From Minisyncoccota bacterium (lineage in GTDB: Bacteria; Patescibacteriota; Minisyncoccia; Phycocordibacterales; VMEP01), in assembly GCA_041661305.1 (NCBI GenBank), contig JBAZUR010000001.1, forward strand, positions 387,684 through 451,683: 64,000 nucleotides of DNA, read 5' to 3'. Made by a program: the position numbers and the translations under genes. A model generated the notes under the pieces. It did not search any database and had not been told where the DNA came from. It worked only from the letters and a program-made list of their open reading frames with translations. Below are positions 23,726-63,872 of this stretch, piece by piece. Numbering within the stretch: the stretch's first letter is position 1; every line of letters starts with the position of its first letter.

Positions 23726-24604
23726 CTATACATTTTTCTGCCAAGAAAAATCTCCGCGTGCAGTTTTTTTGCCGTCTTTTTTTAAGTAGTCTTCCAAAAG
23801 CTCCGAACTTGAACGAACCTTTCCACTTTTACCAATATTGAAAACCATTTCCACTCCCAAATCTTTACAAATTTTCGCTTCTGGTATCGCATCTTCATCT
23901 TTCCTGTCGCCACCGTTAGCAAAAATTTGCGGTCGTATTTTTTCAATTGCCTCCCCCACGTCATCACGATCAGTTTCTAAGATAAAAACATCATCAACAT
24001 GCTTAATCCCTTTTATTAGGGCGGCGCGATCATTTTGGTTCATGAAATACTTTCCTTTTTTACGAATCAACCATGCATCACAATTAATAACAACTATAAG
24101 TTTGTCTCCTAAAGCCTTAGCTTCCTCAAACATCTCTAAGTGTCCTACGTGTATCGGATCAAAACCACCACTAACAACAACTATTTTTTCTTTTTTATCC
24201 ATCTGCAAAACATCTCCGCCCGTCCTGCCGTAATCATCTTCGTATCGAACGATGTCTCCTTCATCAGCAGAGCTACCGTGCACAAGCTCAAAATAAACAC
24301 CGCGAAGCAATCTGTGTTTCTCTTTAGGCTTCACTCTGTAAAAACCAACGTGCCATTCATGGTGTTTATCATCTTCTTCTGTTCCTTGAATCCCTTTACC
24401 GCGAACTATTCTAAAATATATCCCAGGAAGCACGTAGTGTTTGTTTTTAGGTGTAACTTTATACACCCCAAGTTGCCACTCAGTGCGATTATTATGACTC
24501 TGAAGACTTGTCTGCCCACCAACCACAATAAACTTAACCCAGAAATTTTTATGGTGAACAAGCTTCCACATTCTCCCCCATGGTCGTTTTGTATAAAAAG
24601 TCAT
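23726..24604 (-). CDS. Fusion protein: N-terminal tandem cupin modules (mannose-6-phosphate-isomerase type II-like 'RPWG' motif) + C-terminal HxGH nucleotidyltransferase (RfaE/HldE domain-II-like heptose-1-phosphate adenylyl/cytidylyltransferase)
   Basis: KRPWGRMWKL...VKFIVVGGQTSLQSHNNRTEW. There is an internal repeat GVYKVTPKNKHYVLPGIYFRIVRG / GFYRVKPKEKHRLLRGVYFELVHG. The motif VVVSGGFDPIHVGHLEMFEEAKALGDKLIVVIN is the nucleotidyltransferase signature. Confidence 0.55.
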   Translation of the reverse strand: MTFYTKRPWGRMWKLVHHKNFWVKFIVVGGQTSLQSHNNRTEWQLGVYKVTPKNKHYVLPGIYFRIVRGKGIQGTEEDDKHHEWHVGFYRVKPKEKHRLLRGVYFELVHGSSADEGDIVRYEDDYGRTGGDVLQMDKKEKIVVVSGGFDPIHVGHLEMFEEAKALGDKLIVVINCDAWLIRKKGKYFMNQNDRAALIKGIKHVDDVFILETDRDDVGEAIEKIRPQIFANGGDRKDEDAIPEAKICKDLGVEMVFNIGKSGKVRSSSELLEDYLKKDGKKTARGDFSWQKNV

Positions 24605-24705
24605 TTTATTTTTTTACAGTATAAACTAAATTATTATAAGGTCTAACCTTATAAAATATGTAACATTTTGGTTCTAAATATTGTTATATAGTAGAGTAAC
24701 AAAAA

Positions 24706-24731
24706 TGACACTTTTTGACACTTATTGACAC
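24706..24731 (+). promoter_or_regulatory. Three direct TGACAC(TT) boxes at exact 10-bp spacing (24706, 24716, 24726), 30 bp upstream of the HTH_17-gmd operon start; promoter -35 region / regulator binding array
   Basis: Sequence atgacactttttgacacttattgacacc followed by ...tttttactaatact... and ATG at 24763. Confidence 0.5.
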
Positions 24732-24762
24732 CTTCCCTATTTTTACTAATACTTAACAAATC

Positions 24763-25011
24763 ATGACAGAAGAGATACACCCAAATGCTGTTTATACAAC
24801 AGCAGAAACACAAACTATTCTTAAAATAAGTGATAGTACGGTAAAACGTATGCTAAAAAACGGTCTTATTCGTGCTAATAAAGTCGGCGGACAATACAGA
24901 ATTATGGGAAAAGAACTACTTCGTATCCTCTCCCCCGATCTAGAAAAAGAAACAACGCAATCTTATTTAAAAATAAAAAAGAAGGTAGTCGCCAAAATCA
25001 ACAGATGGTAA
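24763..25011 (+). CDS. Small HTH_17 (excisionase-family) DNA-binding protein, translationally coupled to gmd
   Basis: Motif [30 protein letters not shown] (HTH_17 pattern). The stop overlaps the gmd start. Confidence 0.65.
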
Positions 25012-26129
25012 GAATAATAAAAAATAAAAAGCTAATAATAAAAATGAAAAAAACAACAAATAAAAAAAATATCGGTAAAGTATCAACTAAAAATAAAGTA
25101 GCTTTTGTTACTGGAATCACAGGACAAGATGGCTCCTATTTAGCTGAGTTGCTTTTAGAAAAAGGTTATGAAGTACACGGACTCATCCGCCGTGCTAGCA
25201 ATTTCAACACACAAAGAATAGATCATCTCTACAGCGACCCACATAAACACAATGGTAAATTTTTTCTACATTTCGGAGACCTTTCGGATTCGAGCAACCT
25301 AAATCGTATCTTAAGCGAGGTGAAGCCAGACGAAATCTACCATCTTGGAGCACAAAGCCATGTGCGTGTTAGTTTTGATATTCCAGAATATACAGGAGAC
25401 GTCACCGGACTTGGAACAATTCGTCTTCTTGATGCCATGCGTGAAGTTGGTTTAAATAAAACAAAATTTTATCAAGCATCGTCAAGCGAGATGTTTGGTA
25501 AAGCTATCGAAATACCACTCAAAGAAACAACACCTTTTCACCCACGCTCACCATATGGTGTTGCAAAAGTTTACGCATATTGGATAACAAAAAATTATCG
25601 TGAAAGCTATGGAATGTTCGCGTCAAATGGAATATTGTTTAATCACGAAAGCGAAAGACGTGGCGAAACATTCGTCACAAGAAAAATTACACAGGGTCTT
25701 TCTCGTATAAAACTCGGCAAGGAACAAAAACTGTATCTTGGTAATCTTGATGCAATGCGCGATTGGGGTCACGCAAAAGATTATGTTTATGGAATGTGGC
25801 TTATGTTGCAACACAAAGAACCAGATGATTTCATTTTAGCGACCAACGAATCACACAGTGTACGTGAATTTGTAGAAGAAGCCGGAAGGGTTCTTGGGAT
25901 GAATATTGTATGGAGCGGTAAAGGTTTAAAAGAAAAAGGAATTGATAAAAATACAGGTAAGACAATAATTGAGATAGATCCAAGATATTTCCGCCCGGCA
26001 GAAGTAGATGTCTTAAGGGGAGATTATTCAAAAGCAAAAAATAAACTAGGTTGGAAACCAGAAATAAAGTTCAAAGAACTTGTGAGGTTAATGACAGAAT
26101 CGGATTATGAATTAGTTAAAAGTTCATAA
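25005..26129 (+). CDS. gmd: GDP-mannose 4,6-dehydratase (true start may be the internal Met at about 25044)
   Basis: [32 protein letters not shown] is near-canonical Gmd, and the rest is conserved along the length. Confidence 0.9.
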
Positions 26130-26145: not shown

Positions 26146-27108
26146 ATGGTTATGAAAAAGACTTCTAAAATTTATGTGGCTGGACACAATGGACTTGTCG
26201 GTTCGGCAATTGTAAGGCTCCTAAATAAAAAAGGTTATAAAAACATTGTTCTTAGGACCAGAGCAGAACTTGATTTAACTAATCAGAAAAAAGTCGCTGA
26301 TTTTTTCAAAAAAGAAAAACCAGAATATGTATTCTTGGCTGCGGCAAAAGTCGGTGGAATTGTGGCGAACCAAAATATGCCAGCATCCTTCATCCATGAA
26401 AATTTATCTGTACAAAATAATATTATTGATAGCGCTTATCGTGCCAATGTAAAAAAACTTCTTTTTCTTGGAAGTTCTTGCATATACCCAAAACTCGCCC
26501 CACAACCAATTAAAGAGGCTTATCTAATGACAGGACCACTTGAGCCAACAAATTGTAATTACGCCGTTGCTAAAATTGCAGGAATTTTTATGTGCCAAGC
26601 ATACAATAAGCAATACGGCACAAACTTTATTTCGGTCATGCCAACAAATCTCTATGGGCCAAACGATAATTTTGATCCAGTAAATTCACATGTTCTCCCT
26701 GCGCTTATAAAAAGATTTCATGAAGCAAAGGAATCAAAAGCTAAAGAAATAACCATGTGGGGAACAGGATCCCCAAAAAGAGAGTTCTTGCATGTTGATG
26801 ATTTAGCTGATGCTTGTTTATTCCTTATGCAAAATTACAACGAATCAGAGATAGTAAATATAGGCACAGGTGTCGATCTTTCAATAAAATCTTTAACAGA
26901 GAAAGCAAAAAAAATAATAGGTTTTAGTGGAAAAATAATTTGGGACAAAACAAAACCAGATGGTACCCCAAGAAAACTTCTTAATGTTTCCAAGCTACAT
27001 AAACTCGGATGGAAACACAAAATAGATTTAGACACAGGAATCAAAAAAACGTATGAATGGTATAGGGATAACGAGAAAGTTAAAGACAGAAAATTAACAA
27101 GAGAATAA
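26146..27108 (+). CDS. fcl: GDP-L-fucose synthase (GDP-4-keto-6-deoxymannose 3,5-epimerase/4-reductase)
   Basis: [19 protein letters not shown], and 320 aa length. Confidence 0.85.
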
Positions 27109-27111
27109 AAA

Positions 27112-27933
27112 ATGACAAAGGTAACAATTATTAAACCAAAAAAAGTTCTCAGCCTGAGAGATTTTAAAGAACTTTGGGATTACAAAGAGCTCTTGTATTT
27201 TTTTGTATGGCGTGATTTCAAGGTACGCTATAAACAAACCATTATTGGGGTTGGTTGGGCAATATTCCAACCATTTATGACAATGGTCGTTTTCAGTATT
27301 TTTTTTGGAACTCTCTTAAAAATACCTTCTGATAACGTGCCGTATCCAATCTTTGTTTATACAGGACTTCTTTTTTGGCAATTTTTCTCTAGCGCTCTTT
27401 CAGAAACAAGTAGTGTGTTAATTAGTAATCAGGCAATTATAACTAAAGTGTATTTTCCACGACTAATTCTCCCATTATCATCTGTTGCGACAAAACTTGT
27501 TGATTTCGCAATAGCTTCGGTAATTCTTGCAGGAATGATGGTTTATTATGGATATGCCCCACATCTTACGGGATTATTTATCCTCCCCCTCTTACTTGCA
27601 ATCACCTTTATGGCATCTGTTGGTGGTGGATTATTTTTAGCAGCAATAAATGTTAAATATCGCGATGTTCGATATATTCTCCCATTCTTTATTCAGATAT
27701 TAATGTTCCTTACTCCGGTAATTTACCCAGCGAGTATAGCAGGAAAATATTCTTGGATTCTAGCCCTTAACCCAATGATGGGTGTGATTCAATCAGCCCG
27801 AGCAAGTCTCTTGGGAACTGCTCCAATCAACTGGACACTTATTGCGATATCTTTTACCGCCTGCGCAGTACTACTCGCAATTGGTACTATTTATTTCAAA
27901 AAAGTAGAGCGCTATTTTGCAGACATAGCATAA
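27112..27933 (+). CDS. wzm: ABC-2 type polysaccharide export permease (Wzm/TagG-like)
   Basis: Six TM segments, the ABC-2 family pattern (FKVRYKQTIIGVGWAIFQP), and a position directly upstream of the ATPase. Confidence 0.8.
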   Translation: MTKVTIIKPKKVLSLRDFKELWDYKELLYFFVWRDFKVRYKQTIIGVGWAIFQPFMTMVVFSIFFGTLLKIPSDNVPYPIFVYTGLLFWQFFSSALSETSSVLISNQAIITKVYFPRLILPLSSVATKLVDFAIASVILAGMMVYYGYAPHLTGLFILPLLLAITFMASVGGGLFLAAINVKYRDVRYILPFFIQILMFLTPVIYPASIAGKYSWILALNPMMGVIQSARASLLGTAPINWTLIAISFTACAVLLAIGTIYFKKVERYFADIA

Positions 27934-27937: not shown

Positions 27938-29200
27938 ATGAACAACATTATAGAAGTAAAAAATTTAGGAAAAAAATACACGATTAACCATCACCGTGGA
28001 AGTTATGTAGCACTCCGAGATATCCTCACTGCTATTATGAAGAGTCCATTTAAGTTCCTAAAAAAGAAAGCAAAGGAAATAGCTGGTATCGACACAAAAG
28101 AAGATTTTTGGGCACTTAAAGACGTCAGCTTTAATATTGAGCCAGGAGAAGTGGTTGGGGTAATTGGAAGAAATGGCGCCGGCAAATCGACCCTCCTGAA
28201 AATACTTACAGGAATAACACCACCAACAACTGGTGAAATCAGAATGAAAGGGAAAGTTGCTTCCCTGCTTGAGGTTGGAACCGGTTTCCACCCAGAGCTT
28301 ACGGGTAGAGAAAATATTTTTCTAAACGGCGCCATCCTAGGAATGACAAAAAAAGAAATCGTTGAAAAATTTGACGAAATTGTCGCCTTTGCAGGTATTG
28401 ATAAATTCCTCGATACGCCCGTTAAGTACTATTCTAGTGGAATGTACGTACGTCTCGCATTTTCTGTTGCAGCACACATGGAACCAGACATACTTTTAGT
28501 TGACGAGGTACTTGCTGTTGGTGACGCAGAATTCCAAAAAAAATGTCTTGGTAAGATGGAAGAGGTTACAAAAAAATCCGGAAGAACGATTCTCTTTGTG
28601 AGTCATAACATGGCTGCAATCCAGAGTTTATGCAAAAAATGTATTCTCCTTGAAAAAGGAACAGTAAAAATGGTTGGGGAAACAAAAGAGGTTGTGACAC
28701 ACTATCTTAATGATAAAAGTGGAAACACAACATCGATAAGTCTTACGGACAAAAACATAGGTAATGACATTGCAAAACTTCTTGGGGCAAGAATGGTGTA
28801 CAAAACGGGAGAGGAGGCCACATTTGTTTTTTCCGACAAAGAGGTTGGTGTAGAAATGGATTTTGAAGTATTACAAAGCAATCAAAACTTAGTTCCTAAC
28901 ATACATATCTTCACGAGAGCTGGTGAGTATGCTTTTATTAGCCATTCTGACTTAGATGTAAAATTAAACAACACTGGGAAACATCGTGCTACTGCTTGGA
29001 TACCTGCAAACTTACTAAACGAAGGAACATACATAGTCGGAATCGCTCTCTCAACAATGATTCCTCTTAAGGTGCATTTTTATGCTCAAGAAGCTTTAGT
29101 TTTCCAGGTTATGACAAATCTTGACACCGCAAAAAAGAATGATTTTAACCAACGTATACCTGGAGTAGTACGCCCTAAATTAAACTGGAATATTAAATAA
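27938..29200 (+). CDS. wzt: ABC transporter ATP-binding protein Wzt/TagH-like with C-terminal carbohydrate-binding domain
   Basis: Walker A GRNGAGKST, signature YSSGM, Walker B LLVDEVLAVGD, and an extra C-terminal domain of about 170 aa. Confidence 0.85.
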   Translation: MNNIIEVKNLGKKYTINHHRGSYVALRDILTAIMKSPFKFLKKKAKEIAGIDTKEDFWALKDVSFNIEPGEVVGVIGRNGAGKSTLLKILTGITPPTTGEIRMKGKVASLLEVGTGFHPELTGRENIFLNGAILGMTKKEIVEKFDEIVAFAGIDKFLDTPVKYYSSGMYVRLAFSVAAHMEPDILLVDEVLAVGDAEFQKKCLGKMEEVTKKSGRTILFVSHNMAAIQSLCKKCILLEKGTVKMVGETKEVVTHYLNDKSGNTTSISLTDKNIGNDIAKLLGARMVYKTGEEATFVFSDKEVGVEMDFEVLQSNQNLVPNIHIFTRAGEYAFISHSDLDVKLNNTGKHRATAWIPANLLNEGTYIVGIALSTMIPLKVHFYAQEALVFQVMTNLDTAKKNDFNQRIPGVVRPKLNWNIK

Positions 29201-29204: not shown

Positions 29205-29867
29205 ATGAAGATAATAAAAAATTATTATTATTTAATCAGAAATAAAATCCTAAAACATTTTATAGGAGCATATAACATTTGGGATATATATGGTGGGCAT
29301 TTTAAGGTAACTTATCGAGGCATACCGACACTTAAATGTCCCTTTGATTATGTAATGTACCAAATGATAATATCTGAACTTAAGCCAGACCTTGTTATTG
29401 AAATTGGAACCAATTTTGGTGGAACATCTCTATATATTGCCGATTTAATGGAGGCAATAGGGCATGGTGAAGTCCACACAATAGACATAGAAGATCGTAC
29501 AGAAAAAACATTAAAACAACATCCACGCATAAAACTATTTACAAATGGCTGGAAAAATTACGATCTGGAAAATACCAGTAAATTCTTAAAAATAATAGTT
29601 ATCGACGATGCTTCACATATATACGAAGACACACTAGAGACAATAAAAACTTTCTCTAAAATAATACCAGTGGGATCATACTTAATAATTGAGGATGGAA
29701 TTGTAACTAGACTCAAAAGAGCTAAGTTGCTTAATGGCGGACCACTACGAGCAATTGAAGATTTTATGAAAACAAATGACTGTTTCGTAGTTGATAATAA
29801 ATATTGCAATATGTTTGGAGAAGATACAACTTTTAATACCAAGGGGTATCTTAAAAGAATAAAATAA
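29205..29867 (+). CDS. CmcI/cephalosporin-hydroxylase-family SAM-dependent O-methyltransferase (rhamnosyl O-methyltransferase-like)
   Basis: WDIYGG...KPDLVIEIGTNFGGTSLYIADL...IVIDDASH is typical of PF04989. Confidence 0.7.
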   Translation: MKIIKNYYYLIRNKILKHFIGAYNIWDIYGGHFKVTYRGIPTLKCPFDYVMYQMIISELKPDLVIEIGTNFGGTSLYIADLMEAIGHGEVHTIDIEDRTEKTLKQHPRIKLFTNGWKNYDLENTSKFLKIIVIDDASHIYEDTLETIKTFSKIIPVGSYLIIEDGIVTRLKRAKLLNGGPLRAIEDFMKTNDCFVVDNKYCNMFGEDTTFNTKGYLKRIK

Positions 29868-30776
29868 ATGACTAAAGTATTTATAGGAATGCCTGTATAC
29901 AACGGGGAACGCTTTCTAAAAGAAGCACTGGATTCTTTACGTGAGCAAACATTCACTGATTGGGAAATTTTTATTTCTGATGATGCTTCAAAAGACAACA
30001 CTGCAACAATATGTAATGATTTTGCAAAAAAAGATTCCCGGATTTCATACTTTAAGCAAAAAGAAAATATTGGGATGTTTGCAAACTACAAATTTGTCAT
30101 GGATAAAGCAAATGCGGAATACTTTATGTGGGCGGCGCAAGACGATTTGTGGGAAAAGGAATATCTGGAAACATGCATAGAACATTTTAACAAGAACAAA
30201 AACCTTGGACTTGTTACAACCTGTACGATAGCAATCGACTCCTTTGGTCGTACATTAATGAAGGCTCACTGGATGAAAAACCTCTCTGGTAATCCAGGGC
30301 ATTTACAGGTCTCTAAATATGTTTTTCAACCAGAAATACTTGGTAAGTGTAATTTAATGTACTCACTCTTTAAAACAGAAGCTGTAAAAAGTACCTGGAA
30401 TGCATACCCACAAAGAAATGTTTGGGGGCAAGACTACATGTTTAGCTTAGCTGCGATTAGCAGGTTTGGTGTTATTGTTGATGAAAAAACGTTATTTAAA
30501 AAAAGGCTTGGTGGAGCATCTAGTCCACAGTTATCTATAAAAAAAAGCGATGAAGTAGTAACCGCAATGAACTTTAAGAACCCTAAAAATCACATGTTCC
30601 CTTTTGGTCGATTTCAATCATATCTTAACGGGCACATAGAGGCCGTAGATAAAACCACGTACAAACTATTAGTTGCCACCATTCTTTTTATCCGCCTACC
30701 ACGAGCACTTATCATTCATATTAAAGAAAGGAGTATCAAAAACTATATTCAGAGATTAATAAAAAAATTATTATGA
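29868..30776 (+). CDS. Glycosyltransferase family 2
   Basis: GMPVYNGERFLKEALDSLREQTFTDWEIFISDDASKDNT (GT2 DXD region). Confidence 0.8.
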   Translation: MTKVFIGMPVYNGERFLKEALDSLREQTFTDWEIFISDDASKDNTATICNDFAKKDSRISYFKQKENIGMFANYKFVMDKANAEYFMWAAQDDLWEKEYLETCIEHFNKNKNLGLVTTCTIAIDSFGRTLMKAHWMKNLSGNPGHLQVSKYVFQPEILGKCNLMYSLFKTEAVKSTWNAYPQRNVWGQDYMFSLAAISRFGVIVDEKTLFKKRLGGASSPQLSIKKSDEVVTAMNFKNPKNHMFPFGRFQSYLNGHIEAVDKTTYKLLVATILFIRLPRALIIHIKERSIKNYIQRLIKKLL

Positions 30777-40064: not shown

Positions 40065-40067
40065 AAG

Positions 40068-40706: not shown

Positions 40707-40770
40707 AATTTACGATTATATCATAACGTATATATTTAAAAACAAATGTTCTTTCTTTGGTATTTAAGCA

Positions 40771-46847: not shown

Positions 46848-46857
46848 AACAATAAAC

Positions 46858-48077: not shown

Positions 48078-48081
48078 TAAA

Positions 48082-54433: not shown

Positions 54434-54613
54434 CCCATTAGAAACAGAAGGCGTCCTTAAGCAACGCTTCCACGGTTATTCTAATAAAAGTAATATTTGT
54501 CATTGAATCTTTATAAAAAATATACCCATACACGGCAAAACTGTTCATGTTTCTAACGGGACAAGTGCGAGTCTGATTGTATCAAATTAGATGATATACT
54601 TGAAGCCAAAATA

Positions 54614-57428: not shown

Positions 57429-57439
57429 TTAGTGTACGA

Positions 57440-58081
57440 TTATTTCTTCTCTAATTTAACAACAAAAGAAAGCGCAAAAAGTGATGGCCAAATCTTGGTC
57501 ATAAATCTTAATATTACTCCAACCAAAAAATAATCCTGCCAAAATGTATTCATTCGTATCTCAACTAAACTAAGTCCACTCTCTTTTGTCATCTTTCTTA
57601 AACCGCTGTAATTAAACCAGTATATATGCCCTTTGTTCGGCTTATTATTTTCTGGAATCGCGCCAAATAGCGTTTGAATACGAGCAGGCAACGAACTAAA
57701 ATTTGGAACACTTACTACAACGTATTTTTTTGATACACGGGTAGCCTCTCTTAAAAGAATTTCTGGGGTGTAAAGATGCTCCAGAAGATCGAGTATAGAA
57801 ACCGTATCAAATGTATTATCTGGAAATGGAATTTTGTTATTAAAATCAAAAACAGTAGCCTCAATACCCCTGTCTCGCGTCTTACTTATTCCCTCTTCTG
57901 AAATATCAAGGCCATTACCTTTTATCCCCTTTTCTTTCAAAAGAGACAAGAACAACCCGTCCCCAGAACCAAGATCAAGAACTATCCCGCTATCAATCAT
58001 CGAAAGAGCTGCTTTGTGACGAAAGCAAACAACCTGCACATCTTTAGACCATCTATTGTTTTCAAATTGTTTTACACTCAT
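57440..58081 (-). CDS. Class I SAM-dependent methyltransferase
   Basis: VLDLGSGDGLFLSLLKEKG...FDTVSILDLLEHL. Confidence 0.75.
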   Translation of the reverse strand: MSVKQFENNRWSKDVQVVCFRHKAALSMIDSGIVLDLGSGDGLFLSLLKEKGIKGNGLDISEEGISKTRDRGIEATVFDFNNKIPFPDNTFDTVSILDLLEHLYTPEILLREATRVSKKYVVVSVPNFSSLPARIQTLFGAIPENNKPNKGHIYWFNYSGLRKMTKESGLSLVEIRMNTFWQDYFLVGVILRFMTKIWPSLFALSFVVKLEKK

Positions 58082-59193
58082 GATGTTATCAATTTAGTAA
58101 ATTTTTCTGCCACAACCAAAACATCGTAATTAATCGCGTGAATAGCTAATTTTTCTGCCATTAAATCACCATCTGTCTTGCTTTGGTTAAGTAGTAAGTC
58201 AATCTTTTCAACAAAACCTTCTGTGTCACCAACAGTAACCATATTACCGTGAACCACTTGAGGAATGATATCACGTACTGCCCCAACGTCGCTTGCAACA
58301 AATGGTATGCCGAGTGCCATCGCCTCAAGAATCACGCGAGGAAAACCCTCCTCTTCTGAGGGCATAAAAAATATGTCTGAGGCAACAAAATATTCCGGCA
58401 ATTCTCGGTTTGCCACCGCGCCAACCAGCCGAACATTTTTTTCAAGCCCTTTATTTTTTATTTCCCTTCGCAAAAAATTTTCATCTGGACCAGAACCAGC
58501 AACAATAAAAATAGTATTTTGGCGCGCTCGAATAATCTCTAAGGCCACAGGTAAAATCATTCGTGACCCCTTGCGTGGAGAAAGGCGGTGGGCAAACAAA
58601 ATAACTTTTCCATCCTGTGGAATATCTAATTTCTTGCGAGCTTCTTCTTTGGAAAGAATACTTTTAAAACGTCTAAGGTCTATCCAATTTGGCATAACCA
58701 AAACTGATTCTCTTTTTATTCCATAGTGTTCCGCATATTTATCCGCAAGAGAAGGTGCGCCCGTTACCAAGTGTGTTACCATCTTGTAAACTGATCTCTC
58801 AAAAAATTCTCTCAAAAAATTGCGTTTATATTTCCATGGCTCTCCACAATTCCAATAAAAAACTCGTCCGCCGAAAATTTTTATAGTGATGGCTGCAAAA
58901 AATGCCGAGAGAAATGAATAATGAACATAGAAATCTCTGTACCCAGAAAAACATGCCAGCAAAAGAATAACTTTGGTTTCAATTATCCTGAACATAATAA
59001 ACCTAGACTTTAAAACATATGATTTTTTATAACCCAAAGACACGGGTGGTTTTGACCCTTTTTCGATCACTAGATATATATCGAAAATACCCCCTATTTC
59101 CTTCAAAAAGTCATGTATATGCGAAAAATGAGACGCATCAGCAGTCTCGTAGCGCGGAAGAATATAACATAGTTTTGGCTTCATATAAGGCAT
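58078..59193 (-). CDS. Glycosyltransferase family 4
   Basis: EEGFPRVILEAMALGIPFVASDVGAVRDII. Confidence 0.8.
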   Translation of the reverse strand: MPYMKPKLCYILPRYETADASHFSHIHDFLKEIGGIFDIYLVIEKGSKPPVSLGYKKSYVLKSRFIMFRIIETKVILLLACFSGYRDFYVHYSFLSAFFAAITIKIFGGRVFYWNCGEPWKYKRNFLREFFERSVYKMVTHLVTGAPSLADKYAEHYGIKRESVLVMPNWIDLRRFKSILSKEEARKKLDIPQDGKVILFAHRLSPRKGSRMILPVALEIIRARQNTIFIVAGSGPDENFLRREIKNKGLEKNVRLVGAVANRELPEYFVASDIFFMPSEEEGFPRVILEAMALGIPFVASDVGAVRDIIPQVVHGNMVTVGDTEGFVEKIDLLLNQSKTDGDLMAEKLAIHAINYDVLVVAEKFTKLITS

Positions 59194-59234
59194 TATGGGG
59201 CGAAAAGGTGCTGTGTCAAAGCTCTATATCTGGA

Positions 59235-60398
59235 TTACCTAAAACAGCTCGCCCACGATTCCTGCATCTTTTTTAGATACTCTTCTTTTTCCAAACGAAG
59301 AACTTGTATTGCCTCTTGGGCGCTCGTGGCACATTCTTTTCTCGCTTGTGGATCATTTATAAAATGCTCCATATTATTAACAAAACAATCAACATCTCCA
59401 CTATCACAAACCAAAATATCTTTATCCTTCTGCAAAATATCTCCAACGATTCCCACGTCACTAGAAATAATCGGGCAAAGAGACGCAGCCGCTTCAACAA
59501 GCGTCATTCCAAATCCTTCATAGTTTGAAGGGAGAATAAAAGTGTCTGCTGTTTTGTAATACGAAATCATTTCGTTTTGCCAAGACTCAAGGACGACGTT
59601 TCCGCCCAATTTGTAATTTTTAATTTTAAATTTTAAGTTACTCTCTTCGGGCCCTGAGCCAACAACGACAAGCCCGACGTTGGGATATTTTTTTACTAAA
59701 CTACTCATCGCCTCCAAAACCACGCCGATATTCTTTTCACGAGTTAATCTTGAGGCAACGAGAAAAATAAAATCAAACTGAGGATATCTTTTATGTAAAT
59801 CAATAACTGGATTTACTTTACGAATGCTTTCTACATCAACAAAAATTGGAAGAATGGTTGGGGTATTTGTTAGACGATAGTTATTAGTCTTTAGGGAAGA
59901 AGAAATGCGCCTGGAAACAACACGGATACCGTCTGAGCGCGGAAGCAGAAATCTTGAAATCATAACGCGAAATTTATTCAAAAAAGATTCACTTCGAAAA
60001 TATGGACTTAAAAAATCAGTATGAATTTGAAGCTGTAGCTTTGATTTTGTTTTTTTAGATATACCCCAAGCGACAAAACCATTTTCAAAAGGGTCCTGCG
60101 CAGTAATCAGATAACCGTCGCCACCTAAACCAAAGTCCTTGGTGAGATACACACCTAAACGGTACGCCTTAAATAACGAGAGTATTTTAAAACGAGAAGT
60201 TACGGAATAAACAAAAACATTTTCGCTAATTCTTAATCTTTGTTTTTTATCGATATTTTTTTCTCCTGACTTTCCCACTACCAATACGTAGAGCTTGTCG
60301 CAAATAGTTCCGTAAGAAACCATGCGCGCTCGAACGGCGCTTCCCCCCTCGAGAATATTCTTGTCAGTAGAAATCATTATCACTTTCATCCCGTACAA
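59235..60398 (-). CDS. Glycosyltransferase family 4
   Basis: YEGFGMTLVEAAASLCPIISSDVGIVGDIL. Confidence 0.8.
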   Translation of the reverse strand: MYGMKVIMISTDKNILEGGSAVRARMVSYGTICDKLYVLVVGKSGEKNIDKKQRLRISENVFVYSVTSRFKILSLFKAYRLGVYLTKDFGLGGDGYLITAQDPFENGFVAWGISKKTKSKLQLQIHTDFLSPYFRSESFLNKFRVMISRFLLPRSDGIRVVSRRISSSLKTNNYRLTNTPTILPIFVDVESIRKVNPVIDLHKRYPQFDFIFLVASRLTREKNIGVVLEAMSSLVKKYPNVGLVVVGSGPEESNLKFKIKNYKLGGNVVLESWQNEMISYYKTADTFILPSNYEGFGMTLVEAAASLCPIISSDVGIVGDILQKDKDILVCDSGDVDCFVNNMEHFINDPQARKECATSAQEAIQVLRLEKEEYLKKMQESWASCFR

Positions 60399-60646
60399 AA
60401 TAGGAAACGCTTTAAACGCGACTTTATAAAACGTTTACCTCTTCCAGCTTTTAAACATAACTCTCTCGACCTTGCATCTTCTTCGTCAAGACACGCTTCG
60501 TAATAAATCAACTCGTAAGGGCCACGTCCTTTCGTATATGTAGATTTACTATCGTTGTGCTCCTTAAAGCGTTTCCGTAAATTACTCGTATATCCCGTAT
60601 ACAACTTACCATCTTTTTTGCTTTTTAATACATAGGTGTAAAACAT
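60386..60646 (-). CDS. Stand-alone GIY-YIG nuclease-domain protein (UPF0213/YhbQ-like, 86 aa)
   Basis: MFYTYVLKSKKDGKLYTGYTSNLRKRFKEHN is the canonical GIY-YIG pattern. It overlaps the downstream GT4 gene start by 13 nt. Confidence 0.75.
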   Translation of the reverse strand: MFYTYVLKSKKDGKLYTGYTSNLRKRFKEHNDSKSTYTKGRGPYELIYYEACLDEEDARSRELCLKAGRGKRFIKSRLKRFLFCTG

Positions 60647-60675
60647 AACAATGTTATTTTGTACGGGACAGGTTC

Positions 60676-61779
60676 CTAAAAAGATAGGGCCTTAATCGTC
60701 TCTTTTAACATACGTTCGCGATTAAATAAAACCACAGTACTCTTAGCGTTCCCCACCAATTCATCAGAAAAGGCCTCATTAAGCAGAATTTTCTCAACCG
60801 AGCGTACAATTGCATCTCTGTCGTCTAGCTCCACCAAAATGCCATTTTTCCCGTTTTCTATCACCTCCGGATTCCCACCAATATTAGTCGTCACGATTGG
60901 TGTCCCAAGCGCCATAACCTCAAGCAATTGGTGCGAAAAGCCCTCGTAGGCGGTGTTTAAAACAAATACCGAGGCACTCTTTATATATTTAAAAAGCTTC
61001 TCCTGAGAAAGAGCTCCTGCCAAAAAAACAGAAGATTCCAAACCAAGCTCTTTAATTGCCCCCTCAAGTTTTCTCCTCTCTTTCCCTTCTCCTGCAATAA
61101 TCAATTTAATATCTGGAAAATGTTTAATGAGCCTTGGCATAAGCGCCACAAGCGTCAAAAAACCTTTCCACGGGACAAGTCTCCCGGCTGACAATATAAT
61201 TCTCTCTCGCTTAGTTTCATCTATGTCTGTTTTAATCTCTCCGTCAAAAGAGTTATAAACAACCGTTATTTTATTTTTATCAATTCCCCAATTAGAAACT
61301 ATCTGTTTTAAATATTTACTCGGTACAATAATTTTATCCGCTCTTTCTGCAACTTTAGTTTCAATATATTTTAAAATAAAAACAAACAAACCATACCCGC
61401 CTCTCTTTTTTGAAAATTCATCAAGCAAGTCTTTTACTTGAAACCTTGAAACTCCTTGCTCCCAGGCGTAATCACCAACAATTTTCAAAACAAATTTCTT
61501 CCGTAAAAATTTTGACGCAATCATCGCAGGAAAACCAACCGATACTGGATCTTGAGCATAAATCACATCGCATCCGCGCGCCCGTAAAATTGTTTTAACA
61601 AAATAAACAAAATGTCGAATAAGTTTTGGTAGATAACGTACCTCACCAAAACTCAAAACATCAACATCAATCCCCTTCTTTGGTAACTCTTCAAAAAGCG
61701 CCAAGCTATACGAAGCTGGTCCACCAATATCTGGCGGATAAATTCCTGTGGCGATAAGTATTTTTTTGTTAGTAGTCAT
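60676..61779 (-). CDS. Glycosyltransferase family 4
   Basis: YEGFSHQLLEVMALGTPIVTTNIGGNPEVI. Confidence 0.8.
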   Translation of the reverse strand: MTTNKKILIATGIYPPDIGGPASYSLALFEELPKKGIDVDVLSFGEVRYLPKLIRHFVYFVKTILRARGCDVIYAQDPVSVGFPAMIASKFLRKKFVLKIVGDYAWEQGVSRFQVKDLLDEFSKKRGGYGLFVFILKYIETKVAERADKIIVPSKYLKQIVSNWGIDKNKITVVYNSFDGEIKTDIDETKRERIILSAGRLVPWKGFLTLVALMPRLIKHFPDIKLIIAGEGKERRKLEGAIKELGLESSVFLAGALSQEKLFKYIKSASVFVLNTAYEGFSHQLLEVMALGTPIVTTNIGGNPEVIENGKNGILVELDDRDAIVRSVEKILLNEAFSDELVGNAKSTVVLFNRERMLKETIKALSF

Positions 61780-62997
61780 CTATTTTTTACTTTCAAAAAG
61801 TTTATCGAAAACGTTTTCTTTCATATCCTTCGAAATAGTATCCCAATCATATTTTTCCTGCACTAACCTTAACCCATTTACAACCAACTTCTCCTTAATC
61901 TCTTTGTTGTTTACAAGGCTTTCTGCTTGTTTAGCAATCCCCTTTGGGTCGCGAACCTTTACAGCAAGGCCAGTTGGTTCTTTATCTTTATTAATTTCTG
62001 GGTCAAAGAGAAAATCTGAAATTCCACCTTCTTGTGTGGCAATTACAGGTAATCCCGCTGCCATCGCTTCAATAAAAGAAATGCCAAAACCCTCTGAAAG
62101 AGACGGCCTAATAAAAATATCAGATATTTTTAAATATTTTAGTATCTCTTTATTATCTATTTCACCTAAAAAAATAACCCTTGAGGATACTCCAAGATTT
62201 TGAGCAAGCATCCTCAACTCGTCCTCATCTGGACCAATTCCAATTACAAGGAATTTATATCTTTCTGGTAAATCAACAAGGGATTTAATAACATCGTCTA
62301 CCGCATTTTTCTTCACCAACCTAGAGGTTGTAACCATATAAACGTCATTCTCTTTTTTACCTAGTTTATTTTTTAACTCAGTAAGTTCTGTATCTCCAAC
62401 TATTTGTGAAAAATGTTTTACGTTTACGGCATTCGGAATCACAACACCAAAACCCTTAAACCCCATATCTCTTCCCCATCCCATAAGGAAAGTGGAAATT
62501 GTTTGCAAAACAGTAGCCCGCCTAAATCCCGCCACAAAAAGCGGATAAATTGGCAACATTTTTCGTTTTATATATTTAATTGGATCTCCCTCCTGAAGAG
62601 TCAGGACGTACGGCACTTCTCTGTGCATCATGTTAAAAATCGCAGCAGGAACAGCACAGGAATGAGCCATCATTGCCCATACTCCATCGTAACTATTCTT
62701 TCTATGAAGCTCAGCTGCCTTAAAAGCCGAGCTAAACTGAAATAAAAATTTATTTAAATGAAGAGGAAACTTTCCTAAATCAGATATCTTTGGATTGTTT
62801 GTTGTAAAACCAATACGATAGACTGTCACATTTCCTATCCTTTCAATCTCAGGTAGTTTTTTGTCGTAACGAAGCGTCACCATGTCAAAAGAAATATCTT
62901 CTGGTTTAAATCTGTCGGTAATTTCCTTTATAGCCACCTCCGCTCCTCCGATAAATCTTGGGTAATATGAGAGTGAAAAAATTAATATTTTTTTCAT
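61780..62997 (-). CDS. Glycosyltransferase family 4
   Basis: SEGFGISFIEAMAAGLPVIATQEGGISDFL. Confidence 0.8.
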   Translation of the reverse strand: MKKILIFSLSYYPRFIGGAEVAIKEITDRFKPEDISFDMVTLRYDKKLPEIERIGNVTVYRIGFTTNNPKISDLGKFPLHLNKFLFQFSSAFKAAELHRKNSYDGVWAMMAHSCAVPAAIFNMMHREVPYVLTLQEGDPIKYIKRKMLPIYPLFVAGFRRATVLQTISTFLMGWGRDMGFKGFGVVIPNAVNVKHFSQIVGDTELTELKNKLGKKENDVYMVTTSRLVKKNAVDDVIKSLVDLPERYKFLVIGIGPDEDELRMLAQNLGVSSRVIFLGEIDNKEILKYLKISDIFIRPSLSEGFGISFIEAMAAGLPVIATQEGGISDFLFDPEINKDKEPTGLAVKVRDPKGIAKQAESLVNNKEIKEKLVVNGLRLVQEKYDWDTISKDMKENVFDKLFESKK

Positions 62998-62999
62998 TT

Positions 63000-63872
63000 T
63001 TACGCCTTATTATTTTTGATTGACTGAATATATTCCTTTATATCCTCTTCTGTCTTCCATCCTAACAGCTTTGACTTTGAAATATTTAAGGCTGCACCCA
63101 TTCTATTCCCTTTTCTTTCTGGAAGCATTTTTATTTCAGAGCCAAACATTTGAGCTATCTCTAAGATACTGTACGAACGCTCATCACCTAACCCATACTC
63201 ATCCCCCTCTCCTTTTTCTCCAACCAAAACAAGACCACGTACAATATCTTTTACGTGAGTAAAATTACGAACCTGTGTTCCAGGGAGAACCACCGATAGC
63301 GGTTCTCCATTTTTAAACTTTTCAGAAAAAATACCGATAACGGTGGCATATGAACCAGTTGAGATCTCTCGTGGTCCATAAACATTGTAAAAATAAGTAA
63401 TCGCATACGGAACGTTAAACCAATCTCCATAATTAACCACAAGATCTGTGTTCGACGCCTTGGTCCAAGCATATGGACTTTGATATCTACCTAAGCCGTT
63501 ATCACCAAACTTTGTACTTGAACCTGCGTAAATAATTTTTGAATTATGCTTCCTGGCGAACTCAAGCACTGCAAAAGTACCAACAATATTAAAATCCCAA
63601 ACCGTTGGGACATCATTAAAACTTTGTTCCACCCTAGAATATTCTCCTAAGTGGTAGATGATATCTGGTTTTTCTGAGACGTGTTTATCTATGTCTTTTG
63701 TATGTCCCTCCCTGTAATCAACACCTTCTATATGATTCTCTTTTTTCCCGGTAAAATAATTGTCTAAAGAAATTATTTTGTGCCCACTTTTAACAAGCTC
63801 TTCGCATAAGTAAGAACCAATAAAACCGGCTCCGCCGGTTACAAGAATTATTTTTTTATTTTCGCTACTCAT
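63000..63872 (-). CDS. NAD-dependent epimerase/dehydratase (extended SDR)
   Basis: ILVTGGAGFIGSYLCEELVKSGHKIISLDN. Confidence 0.75.
   Translation of the reverse strand: MSSENKKIILVTGGAGFIGSYLCEELVKSGHKIISLDNYFTGKKENHIEGVDYREGHTKDIDKHVSEKPDIIYHLGEYSRVEQSFNDVPTVWDFNIVGTFAVLEFARKHNSKIIYAGSSTKFGDNGLGRYQSPYAWTKASNTDLVVNYGDWFNVPYAITYFYNVYGPREISTGSYATVIGIFSEKFKNGEPLSVVLPGTQVRNFTHVKDIVRGLVLVGEKGEGDEYGLGDERSYSILEIAQMFGSEIKMLPERKGNRMGAALNISKSKLLGWKTEEDIKEYIQSIKNNKA

Follow-up and report, generated by a model that had tools for sequence, protein, structure and literature searches.

Between positions 23726 and 63872 of the 64-kb window (the whole 64,000-nucleotide stretch of DNA analysed), 40 of 40 open reading frames are glycan genes, based on Pfam and NCBIfam domain and family calls (Table 1). 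The genes are real: in independent assemblies their proteins recur with full or 90% identity, and the loci there are colinear. The gene coordinates of an earlier sequence-only reading of this DNA were borne out, and its gene calls are supported by Pfam and NCBIfam. The host is a Paceibacterota/Minisyncoccota bacterium (Patescibacteria, candidate phyla radiation, CPR; kingdom Bacillati) with a tiny genome, and its relatives are CPR MAGs; L numbers below denote the loci used for comparison. The right edge of this ~40 kb island is correctly placed at 63872, because LTD/PKD and TraG-like genes follow; in L082, SDR4 is followed by LTD/PKD and TrwB-like genes. On the left side, the genes for an HTH_17 regulator and a Wzy_C+TPR protein are functionally part of the system too.

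Table 1. Genes of the island and of its left flank (positions in the window).
Feature	Position	Strand	Evidence
Wzy_C (O-antigen-ligase family) membrane protein, C-terminal TPR	13238-15589	-	Wzy_C 75.9 bits (cut-off 31.7); TPR matches
Two secreted Ser/Thr-rich proteins, 1121 and 1037 aa	15723-22274	-	Weak PKD and LTD matches
PMI-type cupin (N-terminal) + CTP_transf_like nucleotidyltransferase fusion	23726-24604	-	CTP_transf_like 55.7 bits; HVGH
HTH_17 regulator, 82 aa	24763-25011	+	Pfam HTH_17 43 bits; gene called in L001
GDP-mannose 4,6-dehydratase (Gmd)	25005-26129	+	TIGR01472 579 bits (cut-off 415); GDP_Man_Dehyd 513.7 bits
GDP-L-fucose synthase (Fcl)	26146-27108	+	NF047922 499.9 bits (cut-off 500)
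Wzm, ABC-2 permease	27112-27933	+	ABC2_membrane 62.5 bits
Wzt, ATPase with C-terminal carbohydrate-binding domain	27938-29200	+	ABC_tran 84 bits; Wzt_C (PF14524) 38.1 bits
CmcI/RMNT (rhamnosyl-O-methyltransferase-family) methyltransferase, candidate terminal capping enzyme	29205-29867	+	RMNT_CmcI 112 bits
GT2, conserved core	29868-30776	+	Pfam 98.2 bits
GT11 fucosyltransferase-like, conserved core	30773-31663	+	Pfam 87.8 bits
SDR1	31668-32678	-	Paired with RmlC
RmlC 3,5-epimerase	32675-33199	-	TIGR01221 243 bits (cut-off 156)
AsnB-type glutamine amidotransferase, conserved core	33387-35159	+	TIGR01536 489.6 bits (cut-off 267)
GT4, conserved core	35152-36303	+	Pfam
GT2, conserved core	36300-37145	+	Pfam
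GmhA-like sedoheptulose-7-P isomerase	37152-37724	-	TIGR00441 189.7 bits (E 3e-56), just under 209 cut-off
GT2	37827-38699	+	Pfam
Class I SAM methyltransferase	38717-39475	+	Pfam
Mini-E1β, 178 aa	39528-40064	-	PVAEE; pair: Transket_pyr 44 bits, E1_dh 51 bits
Mini-E1α, 212 aa	40068-40706	-	GD..29..DN ThDP motif
B12-binding radical-SAM enzyme	40829-42370	-	Pfam B12-binding and Radical_SAM; CxxxCxxC from aa 232
SDR2, NDP-heptose 4,6-dehydratase-like	42504-43532	-	Best PDB 7us5, 206.5 bits
ColD-type PMP-dependent sugar 3-dehydratase	43726-44913	+	Best PDB ColD 2gms, 187 bits
HddA-like GHMP kinase (heptose-7-P 1-kinase)	44910-45866	+	Best NCBIfam HddA 133.6 bits (cut-off 600)
SDR3, close 6vo6 homolog	45909-46847	+	PDB 6vo6, 371 bits, E 4e-110, full length
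CTP_transf_like nucleotidyltransferase, HldC-like, 142 aa	46858-47286	+	Pfam 49.3 bits; HYGH
DUF268-type methyltransferase	47313-48077	+	Pfam
Class I methyltransferase	48046-48705	+	Pfam
FkbM methyltransferase	48707-49534	+	TIGR01444 102.8 bits (cut-off 37.7)
GT-C-fold glycosyltransferase, 564 aa	49531-51225	+	GT-C fold
GT2 polyprenyl-phosphate glycosyltransferase + GtrA-like 4-TM fusion	51236-52306	-	Glycos_transf_2 113 bits; GtrA_DPMS_TM 63 bits
Weak GT11-like transferase	52312-53286	+	Pfam 25.0 bits (cut-off 23.9)
GT4	53288-54433	-	Glycos_transf_1
GT4	54614-55663	+	Glycos_transf_1
GT4	55660-56811	+	Glycos_transf_1
Class I methyltransferase	56808-57428	-	Pfam
Class I methyltransferase	57440-58081	-	Pfam
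GT4	58078-59193	-	Glycos_transf_1
GT4	59235-60398	-	Glycos_transf_1
GT4	60676-61779	-	Glycos_transf_1
GT4	61780-62997	-	Glycos_transf_1
SDR4, extended SDR epimerase/dehydratase, last island gene	63000-63872	-	Epimerase 145 bits

The island is a hypervariable, mosaic surface-glycan locus beside the Wzy_C+TPR ligase-candidate gene at a conserved chromosomal site (SecA-MurB-Wzy_C/TPR), where L173 has a compact version. The conserved core reads [Wzy_C-TPR] HTH gmd fcl wzm wzt CmcI GT2 GT11 AsnB GT4 GT2. Within it, the regulator is kept upstream of gmd/wzm in relatives (66-73% identity, eight loci), the first GT2 and GT11 genes are both kept in L004, L006, L010 and L171, asnB is conserved in these four plus L017 and L173, and orthologs of the core GT4 and second GT2 are 50-69% identical. 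The third GT2 and the adjoining methyltransferase are colinear in L094 and L171, and the DUF268-class I-FkbM methyltransferase trio is entirely colinear in L171, which also has the gmhA-like gene. The weak GT11-like transferase has a 48%-identical ortholog in L004. The SDR1-RmlC pair is an insertion, missing from the closest relative, L171. No orthologs of the genes at 53288-62997 were found near wzt in 80 relatives, and these genes are therefore considered the variable part of the island. They encode seven GT4 enzymes (67-141 bits) and two methyltransferases (Methyltransf_11, MetW).

The island carries genes to build, methylate and export a complex surface glycan, with export following the established ABC-transporter pathway. 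The previously proposed complement of about 14 GT2/GT4/GT11 transferases (four GT2, eight GT4 and two GT11, one of them marginal) and seven SAM methyltransferases (CmcI, DUF268, FkbM and four class I) agrees with the Pfam results. The fourteen glycosyltransferases are mostly single-domain, and the locus may make either the one long polymer proposed earlier or several glycan products. An initiating polyprenyl-phosphate transferase of the WecA/WbaP type was not found within the 64-kb window, which counts against the mechanism proposed below.

Genes for GDP-fucose formation (gmd and fcl) were correctly recognized earlier, with Fcl scoring at the margin of its cut-off; the true start of Gmd is probably 25044. 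ManB/ManC were not found within the 64-kb window. RmlC is closer to RmlC structures in the PDB (197 bits) than to heptose epimerases (68 bits). Six extended SDRs are encoded in the island, Gmd and Fcl included.

The exporter comprises a Wzm that is 71-83% identical to those of CPR relatives and a Wzt with a C-terminal β-sandwich domain (pLDDT 80-94 in an AF2 model). The Wzt_C match (aa 274-394) lies above the gathering score of 30.4. The best Foldseek matches of the model are to full-length Aquifex aeolicus Wzt (8dne/7k2t/8dku, E ~1e-36), in line with the glycan-binding domain and ABC route proposed from the sequence. Binding of 3-O-methyl-Man/Rha caps is a feature of the A. aeolicus carbohydrate-binding domain (PMC9445017).

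The CmcI-type gene begins 4 bp past the wzt stop, directly after it as noted before, and orthologs (56-66% identity) occupy the same place in L002, L004, L005 and L171. Across CPR loci the Wzt nucleotide-binding domain is 75-85% identical, whereas the C-domain is hypervariable. A CmcI ortholog adjoins wzt in all three loci with C-domain identity >50%, and one lies within 3.5 kb downstream of wzt in 0 of 21 CPR-labelled loci lacking detectable C-domain similarity, an association confounded by common ancestry of whole loci. One relative, L006, keeps CmcI (58% identity) with a C-domain that is only 33% identical. The enzyme is a plausible cap-forming methyltransferase, and in relatives it accompanies those Wzt C-domains that are closest in sequence. 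The parallel to E. coli O8/O9a WbdD/Wzt, drawn earlier, is partly supported. A methyl cap is plausible and the Wzt binding domain is present. Unlike WbdD, which has a kinase and a coiled-coil ruler, the island CmcI is a single domain of 220 aa without either, and thus could cap the chain but not measure its length.

Activated heptose synthesis, also proposed previously, is strengthened by GmhA, the HddA-like kinase, SDR2 and SDR3, with most heptose-pathway matches falling under curated NCBIfam cut-offs. The best PDB matches of the kinase are 4n3o, 3k85 and 4usk (82-101 bits, vs 39 bits for galactokinase). The best match of SDR2 is C. jejuni GDP-D-glycero-D-manno-heptose 4,6-dehydratase; Gmd structures score <=141 bits. 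The structure matched by SDR3, 6vo6, is the C. jejuni GDP-heptose C4-dehydrogenase Cj1427. Two HxGH nucleotidyltransferases are indeed present. The 142-aa protein (rfaE_dom_II 55.7 bits, below cut-off) has 72%-identical orthologs in L089/L095, and the fusion protein resembles HldC/RfaE domain II (best NCBIfam rfaE_dom_II 79.9 bits, below cut-off). The "tandem cupins" of the latter reduce to a single weak PF01050 match (E 0.009) with an internal repeat; the N-terminus begins RPWG. C. jejuni offers precedents for such a heptose route (PMC10440746, PMC10680097). GmhB was not found within the 64-kb window. The combination of an HddA-like (α-anomer) kinase with an HldC-like (β-anomer) transferase counts against the route.

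The DegT-family enzyme has a His-type (dehydratase) active site. Its YAHH motif aligns to YSHH of ColD, so that a His (H188 in ColD) stands in place of the catalytic Lys of aminotransferases, and this rules out an aminotransferase. The same His-His occurs in 58 of 58 motif matches found in loci with the cassette described below. As the sole DegT enzyme is a 3-dehydratase, nothing in the locus supports the amino sugars that had been deduced from it.

The 3-dehydratase, mini-E1α/β, B12 radical-SAM enzyme and 6vo6-like SDR make up a previously uncharacterised cassette, predicted to serve a rare sugar derived from heptose, and ~39 unrelated metagenome loci have it too. At E<=1e-30 the mini-E1 family numbers 113 clusters, almost all of proteins ~200 aa long, and the α and β genes occur as a pair in 38 of 39 loci. 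The pair is a candidate ThDP-dependent C-C bond-forming enzyme acting on a 4-keto sugar. The B12 radical-SAM protein (best NCBIfam HpnJ, 104 bits, far under cut-off) is possibly a C-methylase or cyclase. In L085, its ortholog is 67.5% identical and that of SDR3 58% identical. The GC content of the B12 radical-SAM gene is atypical (0.494, vs 0.358 for the locus).

The 564-aa protein has a GT-C fold. It had no match in Pfam or NCBIfam, and is predicted to represent a new family of membrane glycosyltransferase. Every organism-naming source is a CPR taxon or an unclassified "bacterium". Its pairing with the GT2-GtrA fusion (best NCBIfam matches AglJ, PgfS and ArnC) is kept in L172 and L173, and three-component extracytoplasmic glycosylation provides a precedent for the arrangement (PMC11127046). 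The mini-E1 pair, B12 radical-SAM enzyme, GT-C/GT2-GtrA pair and Wzy_C+TPR protein were all absent from the sequence-only reading.

The Wzy_C+TPR protein, encoded outside 23726-63872, has ~15 predicted transmembrane segments, and in 10 relatives as well as in L173 its orthologs are immediate neighbors of the wzm/wzt module. It is the best candidate for a ligase or oligosaccharyltransferase. Possible acceptors are the neighboring Ser/Thr-rich proteins, which both have signal peptides (S+T 20-22%; LTD 35.0 bits vs cut-off 34.3; PKD under its cut-off). Electron microscopy of the Paceibacterota group indicated that an outer membrane is lacking (PMC7137472). Thus, an LPS O-antigen is ruled out as the product, and its earlier designation as O-polysaccharide was wrong; the acceptor would not be lipid A-core.

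We consider the chance slightly better than even that the island and the Wzy_C+TPR gene constitute a CPR surface-glycan system combining ABC export, a methyl cap, an unusual heptose, extracytoplasmic decoration and ligation. In the cytoplasm, as many as 13 GT2/GT4/GT11 enzymes would assemble the glycan on polyprenyl phosphate. They would draw on GDP-fucose supplied by Gmd/Fcl, on an unusual heptose derivative and, probably, on a 6-deoxyhexose of the rhamnose type from RmlC/SDR1. The heptose derivative may be formed by GmhA, the HddA-like kinase and the HldC-like nucleotidyltransferase, followed by C4 oxidation or 4,6-dehydration (SDR3/SDR2), removal of the 3-OH by the ColD-type enzyme, and further modification by the mini-E1 pair and B12 radical-SAM enzyme. 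Up to seven methyltransferases would O-methylate the chain, with the CmcI-type enzyme methylating the non-reducing terminal sugar. Recognition of this cap by the Wzt C-domain would license export through Wzm/Wzt. The GT2-GtrA fusion may make a polyprenyl-P-sugar and flip it across the membrane, where the GT-C enzyme would use it to add side residues. Wzy_C+TPR would then transfer the glycan to its acceptor, most likely either secreted surface proteins rich in Ser/Thr or a membrane anchor.

Of this picture, the analysis shows the encoded activities, the Wzm/Wzt exporter with its C-terminal β-sandwich domain, the GT-C fold of the 564-aa protein, the His-type active site of the DegT-family enzyme and the mosaic pattern in which the island is conserved; the mechanism is inferred.

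The glycan island comprises 40 ORFs in an unbroken block, with many switches of coding strand, and a glycan-related assignment or context was found for each (positions are listed in the table). Using Pfam and NCBIfam profiles, we identified Gmd (579 bits; cut-off 415) and Fcl (499.9 bits; cut-off 500), along with two GT11 transferases, one at 87.8 bits and the other marginal (25.0 bits; cut-off 23.9). These genes encode a GDP-L-fucose pathway with fucosyltransferases and, as judged from the profile matches, the GDP-fucose pathway is secure. Four GT2 and eight GT4 transferases and seven SAM methyltransferases were also identified, and the gene counts of the earlier, sequence-only reading of this DNA are correct. 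Other genes encode a true RmlC (243 bits; cut-off 156), an AsnB-type amidotransferase, GmhA-like and HddA-like proteins and two HxGH nucleotidyltransferases. The tandem cupins formerly described on one of the latter reduce to a single weak PMI-type cupin match with an internal repeat.

Positions within the window of the features discussed in the text
Feature	Positions	Strand	Description
Repetitive ORF	1-3294	-	continues past the left end; 1097 aa or more
TRF array	62-118		within the repetitive ORF
TRF array	1418-1511		within the repetitive ORF
Phage_holin_4_2 gene	7028-7375	-	115 aa
Wzy_C+TPR gene	13238-15589		ligase-type protein
PaaX-like gene	23064-23636	-	190 aa
Glycan island	23726-63872		40 ORFs
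CmcI gene	29205-29867		methyltransferase after wzt
SDR1	31668-32678		extended SDR
Cassette	39528-47286		mini-E1/ColD/radical-SAM sub-cluster
Radical-SAM gene	40829-42370		B12-binding enzyme
SDR2	42504-43532		extended SDR
DegT gene	43726-44913		ColD-type 3-dehydratase
SDR3	45909-46847		extended SDR
GT-C gene	49531-51225		564-aa GT-C-fold transferase
GT2-GtrA gene	51236-52306		fusion protein
SDR4	63000-63872		extended SDR

The right boundary proposed for the island is real, and surface-protein and TraG-like genes come next. In a database locus that extends beyond it (L082, positions 1088-4418), a gene for an LTD/PKD surface protein (480 aa) and one for a TrwB/TraG-like coupling protein (632 aa) come immediately after it. 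On the other side, the island is separated from the Wzy_C+TPR gene by genes for two secreted, Ser/Thr-rich proteins that have weak PKD and LTD matches, thus surface-protein genes flank the island on both sides. The left end of the window seemed ORF-free because one long minus-strand ORF leaves the window there. Its product (27% Ser plus Thr, no Cys, with repeated segments) is probably another repetitive surface protein. Just outside the island is a gene for a protein with a PaaX central Cas2-like domain (72.8 bits) and a marginal CRISPR_Cas2 match; no CRISPR array was seen in the window. A gene with a full-length Phage_holin_4_2 match (97.8 bits) sits between obg and a gene for a small membrane protein, amid housekeeping genes. 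No Rfam family or tRNA was detected in the window.

We identified an ABC exporter of the Wzm/Wzt type. Wzm (PF01061, 62.5 bits) and the NBD of Wzt (PF00005, 84.3 bits) are encoded by adjacent genes separated by 4 bp, and the best PDB sequence matches of Wzt are to A. aeolicus Wzt (246 bits). The C-terminus of Wzt (aa 274-394) matches Wzt_C (PF14524) at 38.1 bits, above the gathering score of 30.4; the C-domain alone has no PDB sequence match. In an AF2 model of Wzt (pLDDT 76 overall) the C-domain is a β-sandwich (pLDDT 80-94), and a Foldseek search with this model returned the full-length, CBD-containing A. aeolicus Wzt at the top (421-424 columns, E about 1e-36). The homology to glycan-binding modules on which the sequence-only reading depended is therefore present. 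The CBD of A. aeolicus Wzt binds 3-O-methyl-mannose or 3-O-methyl-rhamnose caps (PMC9445017). Here, a gene for an enzyme of the CmcI/rhamnosyl-O-methyltransferase family (112 bits) begins 4 bp past the wzt stop.

Among CPR Wzt loci the NBD is 75-85% identical, whereas identity of the C-domain falls from 57% to undetectable; a hypervariable C-domain on a conserved NBD is the pattern known between serotypes. A CmcI ortholog (56-66% identity) lies next door in all three loci with more than 50% C-domain identity, and none was found within 3.5 kb downstream of wzt in the 21 CPR-labelled loci without detectable C-domain similarity. One locus (L006) is a partial exception, with CmcI kept but a Wzt C-domain of just 33% identity. 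Elsewhere among the relatives, wzt is followed by a gene for a different methyltransferase or a GT11. This pattern fits a predicted cap/CBD specificity pair, and is confounded by co-inheritance.

The locus is like A. aeolicus WzmWzt and E. coli O8/O9a WbdD-Wzt in having Wzm, Wzt with a β-sandwich CBD and an adjoining methyltransferase, and to this extent the arrangement proposed earlier is borne out. The WbdD-type chain-length control that was proposed with it is not. The methyltransferase (220 aa) matches PF04989 and PF13578 only, CmcI is its sole PDB relative, and its length leaves no room for the kinase or coiled-coil ruler of WbdD, both of which it lacks. Thus, it can be a candidate cap-adding enzyme, but not a molecular ruler.

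Taken further, the sequence-only reading points to an LPS-type O-polysaccharide, made on undecaprenyl phosphate and ligated to lipid A-core, whose chain length would be set by a terminator resembling WbdD/Wzt of E. coli O8/O9a. The exporter with its CBD and neighboring methyltransferase would suit such a product, as would the nearby Wzy_C gene (O-antigen ligase family) and the JGI label of Wzt homologs, "lipopolysaccharide transport system ATP-binding protein". We nevertheless consider this reading improbable. CmcI belongs to a different family from WbdD, genes for lipid A, core or Lpt functions (lpx, waa, lpt) were not identified in the window, and methyl-capped Wzm/Wzt systems also serve S-layer glycoprotein glycans of monoderm bacteria. 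Furthermore, members of the Patescibacteria, the group of the host, are described as lacking an outer membrane (PMC7137472), and it is therefore very unlikely that the product is an LPS O-antigen. Other differences from the A. aeolicus and E. coli systems, beyond a host group without outer membrane or LPS, are the lack of WecA in the window and the TPR domain of the candidate ligase. No initiating transferase (WecA/MraY-like PF00953 or WbaP PF02397) was matched among the non-overlapping window ORFs of at least 100 aa; it may be encoded elsewhere in the genome.

The Wzy_C+TPR protein is the only ligase-type protein encoded nearby, and its gene is in conserved synteny. In PDB and NCBIfam searches only its TPR region found matches. 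By analogy with monoderm S-layer glycan systems, we prefer a reading in which the glycan would be attached to protein by O-glycosylation. The slg cluster of Geobacillus stearothermophilus encodes Wzm/Wzt, a route to a 2-O-methyl-rhamnose cap and the O-oligosaccharyltransferase WsaB. Shared with it are the ABC route, a methylated terminal 6-deoxyhexose as a likely cap, a Wzy_C-family transferase as a likely ligase to protein and a single-membrane host. In contrast to slg, the gene content here is far larger (the heptose cassette and GT-C system are extra), no WsaP-type initiating enzyme was found in the window, and the acceptor proteins are a guess.

We identified candidate genes for most steps of a pathway to an activated heptose. 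The GmhA-like protein matches TIGR00441 at 189.7 bits (E 3e-56; curated cut-off 209.45). The best family for the GHMP kinase is HddA (133.6 bits; cut-off 600), and its four best PDB matches are heptose kinases (82-101 bits). The two CTP_transf_like nucleotidyltransferases best match rfaE_dom_II (79.9 and 55.7 bits; cut-off 181.5). SDR2 is closest to the C. jejuni GDP-heptose 4,6-dehydratase (PDB 7us5, 206 bits, compared with at most 141 bits for Gmd), and SDR3 matches PDB 6vo6 over its full length at 371 bits. From the depositor's molecule name, we take 6vo6 to be Cj1427, the GDP-heptose C4-dehydrogenase. These matches strengthen the earlier suggestion of an activated heptose. No GmhB or other HAD phosphatase was identified among the scanned ORFs of the window. 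This does not refute the pathway, since gmhB of C. jejuni lies outside the CPS cluster (PMC10680097).

Alternative assignments for several of these enzymes were rejected. RmlC is not a heptose epimerase (197 bits to RmlC versus 68). For the nucleotidyltransferases, roles in CDP-type 3,6-dideoxyhexose (E1/E3) or CDP-glycerol (TagD) formation were set aside as heptose models score higher, and neither E3 nor TagF was identified. In a relative that encodes the same GT-C family (L172, positions 1-2618), there is a classical split HldE set (PfkB kinase, SIS/GmhA, CTP_transf_like protein and SDR). It thus seems that CPR glycan islands of this kind commonly use heptose, although with different types of kinase.

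The nucleotidyltransferases also bear on whether the island makes a secondary cell-wall polymer or one akin to wall teichoic acid. A TagGH-like transporter would export this polymer, it would be attached to peptidoglycan, and the CTP_transf_like enzymes would be of the TagD type. Both proteins match TagD (55.8 and 35.8 bits), TagH/TarH models and structures give good scores for the Wzt NBD, and MurB is encoded nearby. However, the RfaE-domain-II (heptose) model outscores TagD for both proteins, cap-binding Wzt_C domains typically go with capped glycans and not with TagH, and a tool-kit for fucose and, as predicted, for heptose is present. No TagF/Glyphos_transf polymerase, LCP ligase or TagO was found in the window. 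We regard this as the least probable of the explanations considered.

The DegT protein was earlier taken as a sign of amino sugars. Its best PDB match is ColD (2gms, 187 bits), and a His aligns with H188 of ColD, a position marked by the mutant entries 3b8x and 2r0t. Replacement of the PLP-binding Lys by His is diagnostic of ColD/E1-type sugar 3-dehydratases, and an aminotransferase of the perosamine or PseC type is ruled out by this residue together with the ColD match. There is no other aminotransferase or N-acetyltransferase in the island, thus amino sugars are unsupported. At four related loci (L004, L006, L010 and L015), an additional DegT gene, absent from this island, occurs between fcl and wzm. 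Its product is 31-33% identical to the DegT protein here, shows no ColD-type His-His match, and may be a true aminotransferase (e.g., perosamine synthase).

In C. jejuni, a 4,6-dehydratase and a PLP-dependent C3-dehydratase lead to 3,6-dideoxyheptoses (PMC10440746), and Cj1427 with a C3-dehydratase forms GDP-3-deoxy-4-keto-heptose in vitro (PMC10680097). The island encodes homologs for each step of the C. jejuni capsular heptose pathways (GmhA, HddA, Cj1427, DdahA and the HS:5 C3-dehydratase). Unlike C. jejuni, the nucleotidyltransferase is CTP_transf_like (HldC type) rather than HddC, the RmlC is genuine and not a heptose epimerase, and a ThDP pair and a B12 radical-SAM enzyme without C. jejuni counterpart are added.

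The genes for these additional proteins, mini-E1α (212 aa), mini-E1β (178 aa) and a B12-binding radical-SAM enzyme, lie between the GmhA and methyltransferase genes. The mini-E1 proteins match PF00676 (51 bits) and PF02779 (44 bits), and ThDP motifs are present. Such a ThDP α subunit and pyrimidine-binding β subunit beside 4-keto-sugar genes is the arrangement of E1α/β-type branching enzymes. The E1α/β homologs AviB1/B2 and Plm8/9, as well as YerE/ErwE, attach carbon branches to 4-keto deoxysugars (PMC4802897, PMC4425429, PMC9306805). The pair here is likewise of the E1α/β type of AviB1/B2 (PMC4425429, PMC4802897), and lies beside genes predicted to make an NDP-3-deoxy-4-keto sugar, the acceptor type of YerE (PMC9306805). 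It does not consist of full-length E1 subunits: compared with Pau11 and Pau12 (325 and 345 aa; PMC4425429), the α subunit is without its C-terminal half and the β subunit without its Transketolase_C domain. In contrast to AviB1/B2 and Plm8/9, its genomic setting is cell-surface glycan loci and not antibiotic clusters.

Homologs of mini-E1α that are 70-91% identical are consistently about 200 aa long (195-255 across the family), and 113 clusters were found at E<=1e-30. One 90%-identity cluster of mini-E1α proteins (196 aa) also lists 419-aa members named "CDP-6-deoxy-D-xylo-4-hexulose-3-dehydrase" (database proteins P0508, P0510 and P0511), which are either fusions of the ThDP subunit and 3-dehydratase or a clustering artefact. 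We surveyed 39 cassette loci of at least 9 kb, and in these the ThDP pair is accompanied by a ColD-type enzyme (36 loci), a GHMP kinase (34) and a radical-SAM enzyme (25). A 6vo6-like SDR and a nucleotidyltransferase also travel with it, and the pair adjoins C4-dehydrogenase-like and 3-dehydratase genes in at least 32 loci. The active-site motif is His-His in 58 of 58 matches. GmhA co-occurs with the cassette in only one of the 39 loci, at first sight a point against heptose. This would be accounted for if gmhA of the carriers lies at another site, like gmhB of C. jejuni, and the match of SDR3 to 6vo6 is strong. The conserved parts of the cassette are the HddA-like kinase, nucleotidyltransferase, Cj1427-like C4-dehydrogenase, ColD-type C3-dehydratase, mini-E1α/β and B12 radical-SAM enzyme.

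Carrier loci range in GC content from 35% to 64%. The radical-SAM gene has a GC fraction of 0.494 compared with 0.358 for the island and 0.40 for its flanks, and its orthologs (67.5% identity) occur in loci of 55-64% GC, which suggests acquisition from a high-GC donor. Together, the range of carriers and the composition of this gene point to horizontal spread of the cassette. We infer that the ThDP pair would branch 3-deoxy-4-keto-heptose at C4, and that the radical-SAM enzyme would methylate or cyclise the product. One possible outcome resembles caryose, a 4,8-cyclo-3,9-dideoxy-nonose (structure in PMC9671505). In this putative route, oxidation at C4 would be followed by deoxygenation at C3, the ThDP enzyme would ligate a pyruvate-derived acetyl group to C4 (providing carbons 8 and 9), and radical chemistry would close a ring between C7 and C8 or add a C-methyl group. 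Such a route fits every predicted enzyme conserved in the cassette. That this sub-cluster is a horizontally mobile cassette turning NDP-heptose into a new higher sugar, either C-branched or carbocyclic, is a speculative proposal that we ourselves find rather doubtful. If true, the mini-E1 pair would join YerE and AviB1/B2 as a third type of ThDP enzyme that branches sugars.

The 564-aa protein has no Pfam or NCBIfam match, about 12 TM segments and an invariant Asp-Glu after TM1. There are 97 homologs, two of which are fused to GT4, and every source that names an organism is a CPR taxon or an unclassified "bacterium". Its gene is convergent with that of the GT2-GtrA fusion (best NCBIfam models AglJ, PgfS and ArnC), and the pairing recurs in two other loci (L172 and L173). 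The two neighboring genes would supply a polyprenyl-P-sugar synthase of the GT2 type, a flippase domain of the GtrA type and a GT-C protein, the predicted anatomy of three-component extracytoplasmic glycosylation (PMC11127046). The acceptor of the GT-C enzyme could be the exported glycan or a protein. The same three parts, paired in relatives as they are here, make up the GtrA/GtrB/Gtr*, ArnC/ArnT and GT136 systems (PMC11127046); unlike in those, synthase and GtrA are fused and the GT-C protein falls outside every Pfam and NCBIfam family. A GT-C glycosyltransferase family that lacks an existing profile is of value beyond this genome.

The host belongs to the Paceibacterota/Minisyncoccota. Proteins identical to Wzt, the ThDP enzyme and the 564-aa protein are deposited from a 476,097-bp contig under the name "Candidatus Paceibacterota bacterium", which NCBI places in Minisyncoccota, kingdom Bacillati. 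The island DNA is also present in independent assemblies, and the nearest Wzt loci are in Parcubacteria and Paceibacterota MAGs. We compared all window proteins with 80 Wzt loci of GTDB genomes by tblastn. The conserved Paceibacterota core consists of a divergent Wzy_C+TPR gene followed by HTH_17, gmd, fcl, wzm, wzt, CmcI, GT2, GT11, AsnB, GT4 and GT2. In L173, a compact 12-kb version is found at the same SecA-MurB-Wzy_C/TPR site. Colinearity with the closest relative, L171, extends from wzt to FkbM; SDR1 and RmlC are missing there, and different genes stand where the 564-aa GT-C gene is here. For the right-hand block (GT4b-h, methyltransferases and SDR4), no orthologs were found near wzt among the 80 loci. 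With a conserved core and variable modules, the locus is a hypervariable mosaic that stays at one site. It behaves like an O-antigen locus, in which modules vary between close relatives and the chromosomal site does not.

These comparisons raise the possibility that the island serves several independent glycoconjugate pathways rather than one long polymer, for example a core fucose-containing glycan exported by Wzm/Wzt, PMT-like protein glycosylation (GT2-GtrA plus GT-C), and a GT4-rich glycolipid or oligosaccharide module. Conservation with wzt in relatives is limited to the core genes (gmd to GT2b), modules come and go between close relatives, PgfS (among the best models of GT2-GtrA) belongs to a protein-glycosylation system, and there are many strand switches. 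On the other hand, the window encodes a single polymer exporter and a single lipid-sugar flippase domain (GtrA); Wzx, a Wzy polymerase with Wzz, or a synthase were not identified in it; and the 40 kb hold nothing but glycan genes, without interruption. Separate pathways are a possibility to be taken seriously, if on balance an unlikely one.

Overall, the observation of a large glycan locus is confirmed and its earlier interpretation is partly supported. The system would work like cap-dependent, ABC-transporter glycan assembly, but in a host without LPS and with added modules. Wzt systems in Patescibacteria and the cassette both went undescribed in the papers covered by our (incomplete) literature search. 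The newest elements are the mini-E1/ColD/radical-SAM heptose cassette and the GT-C family. The former, a widespread, heptose-modifying combination of a minimal ThDP enzyme and a B12 radical-SAM enzyme, could explain rare branched or carbocyclic sugars. For this group, whose genomes are tiny, a scarcity of genes for nucleotide sugars and polysaccharides has been described (PMC7137472), yet here 40 kb (8.4% of the 476-kb contig) are given over to a surface glycan. Genes predicted to make exopolysaccharide in a cultivated Saccharibacterium are essential or confer fitness (PMC10633639). Therefore, surface glycans may matter in these epibionts and, if so, may have a role in host attachment, phage evasion or immune evasion.
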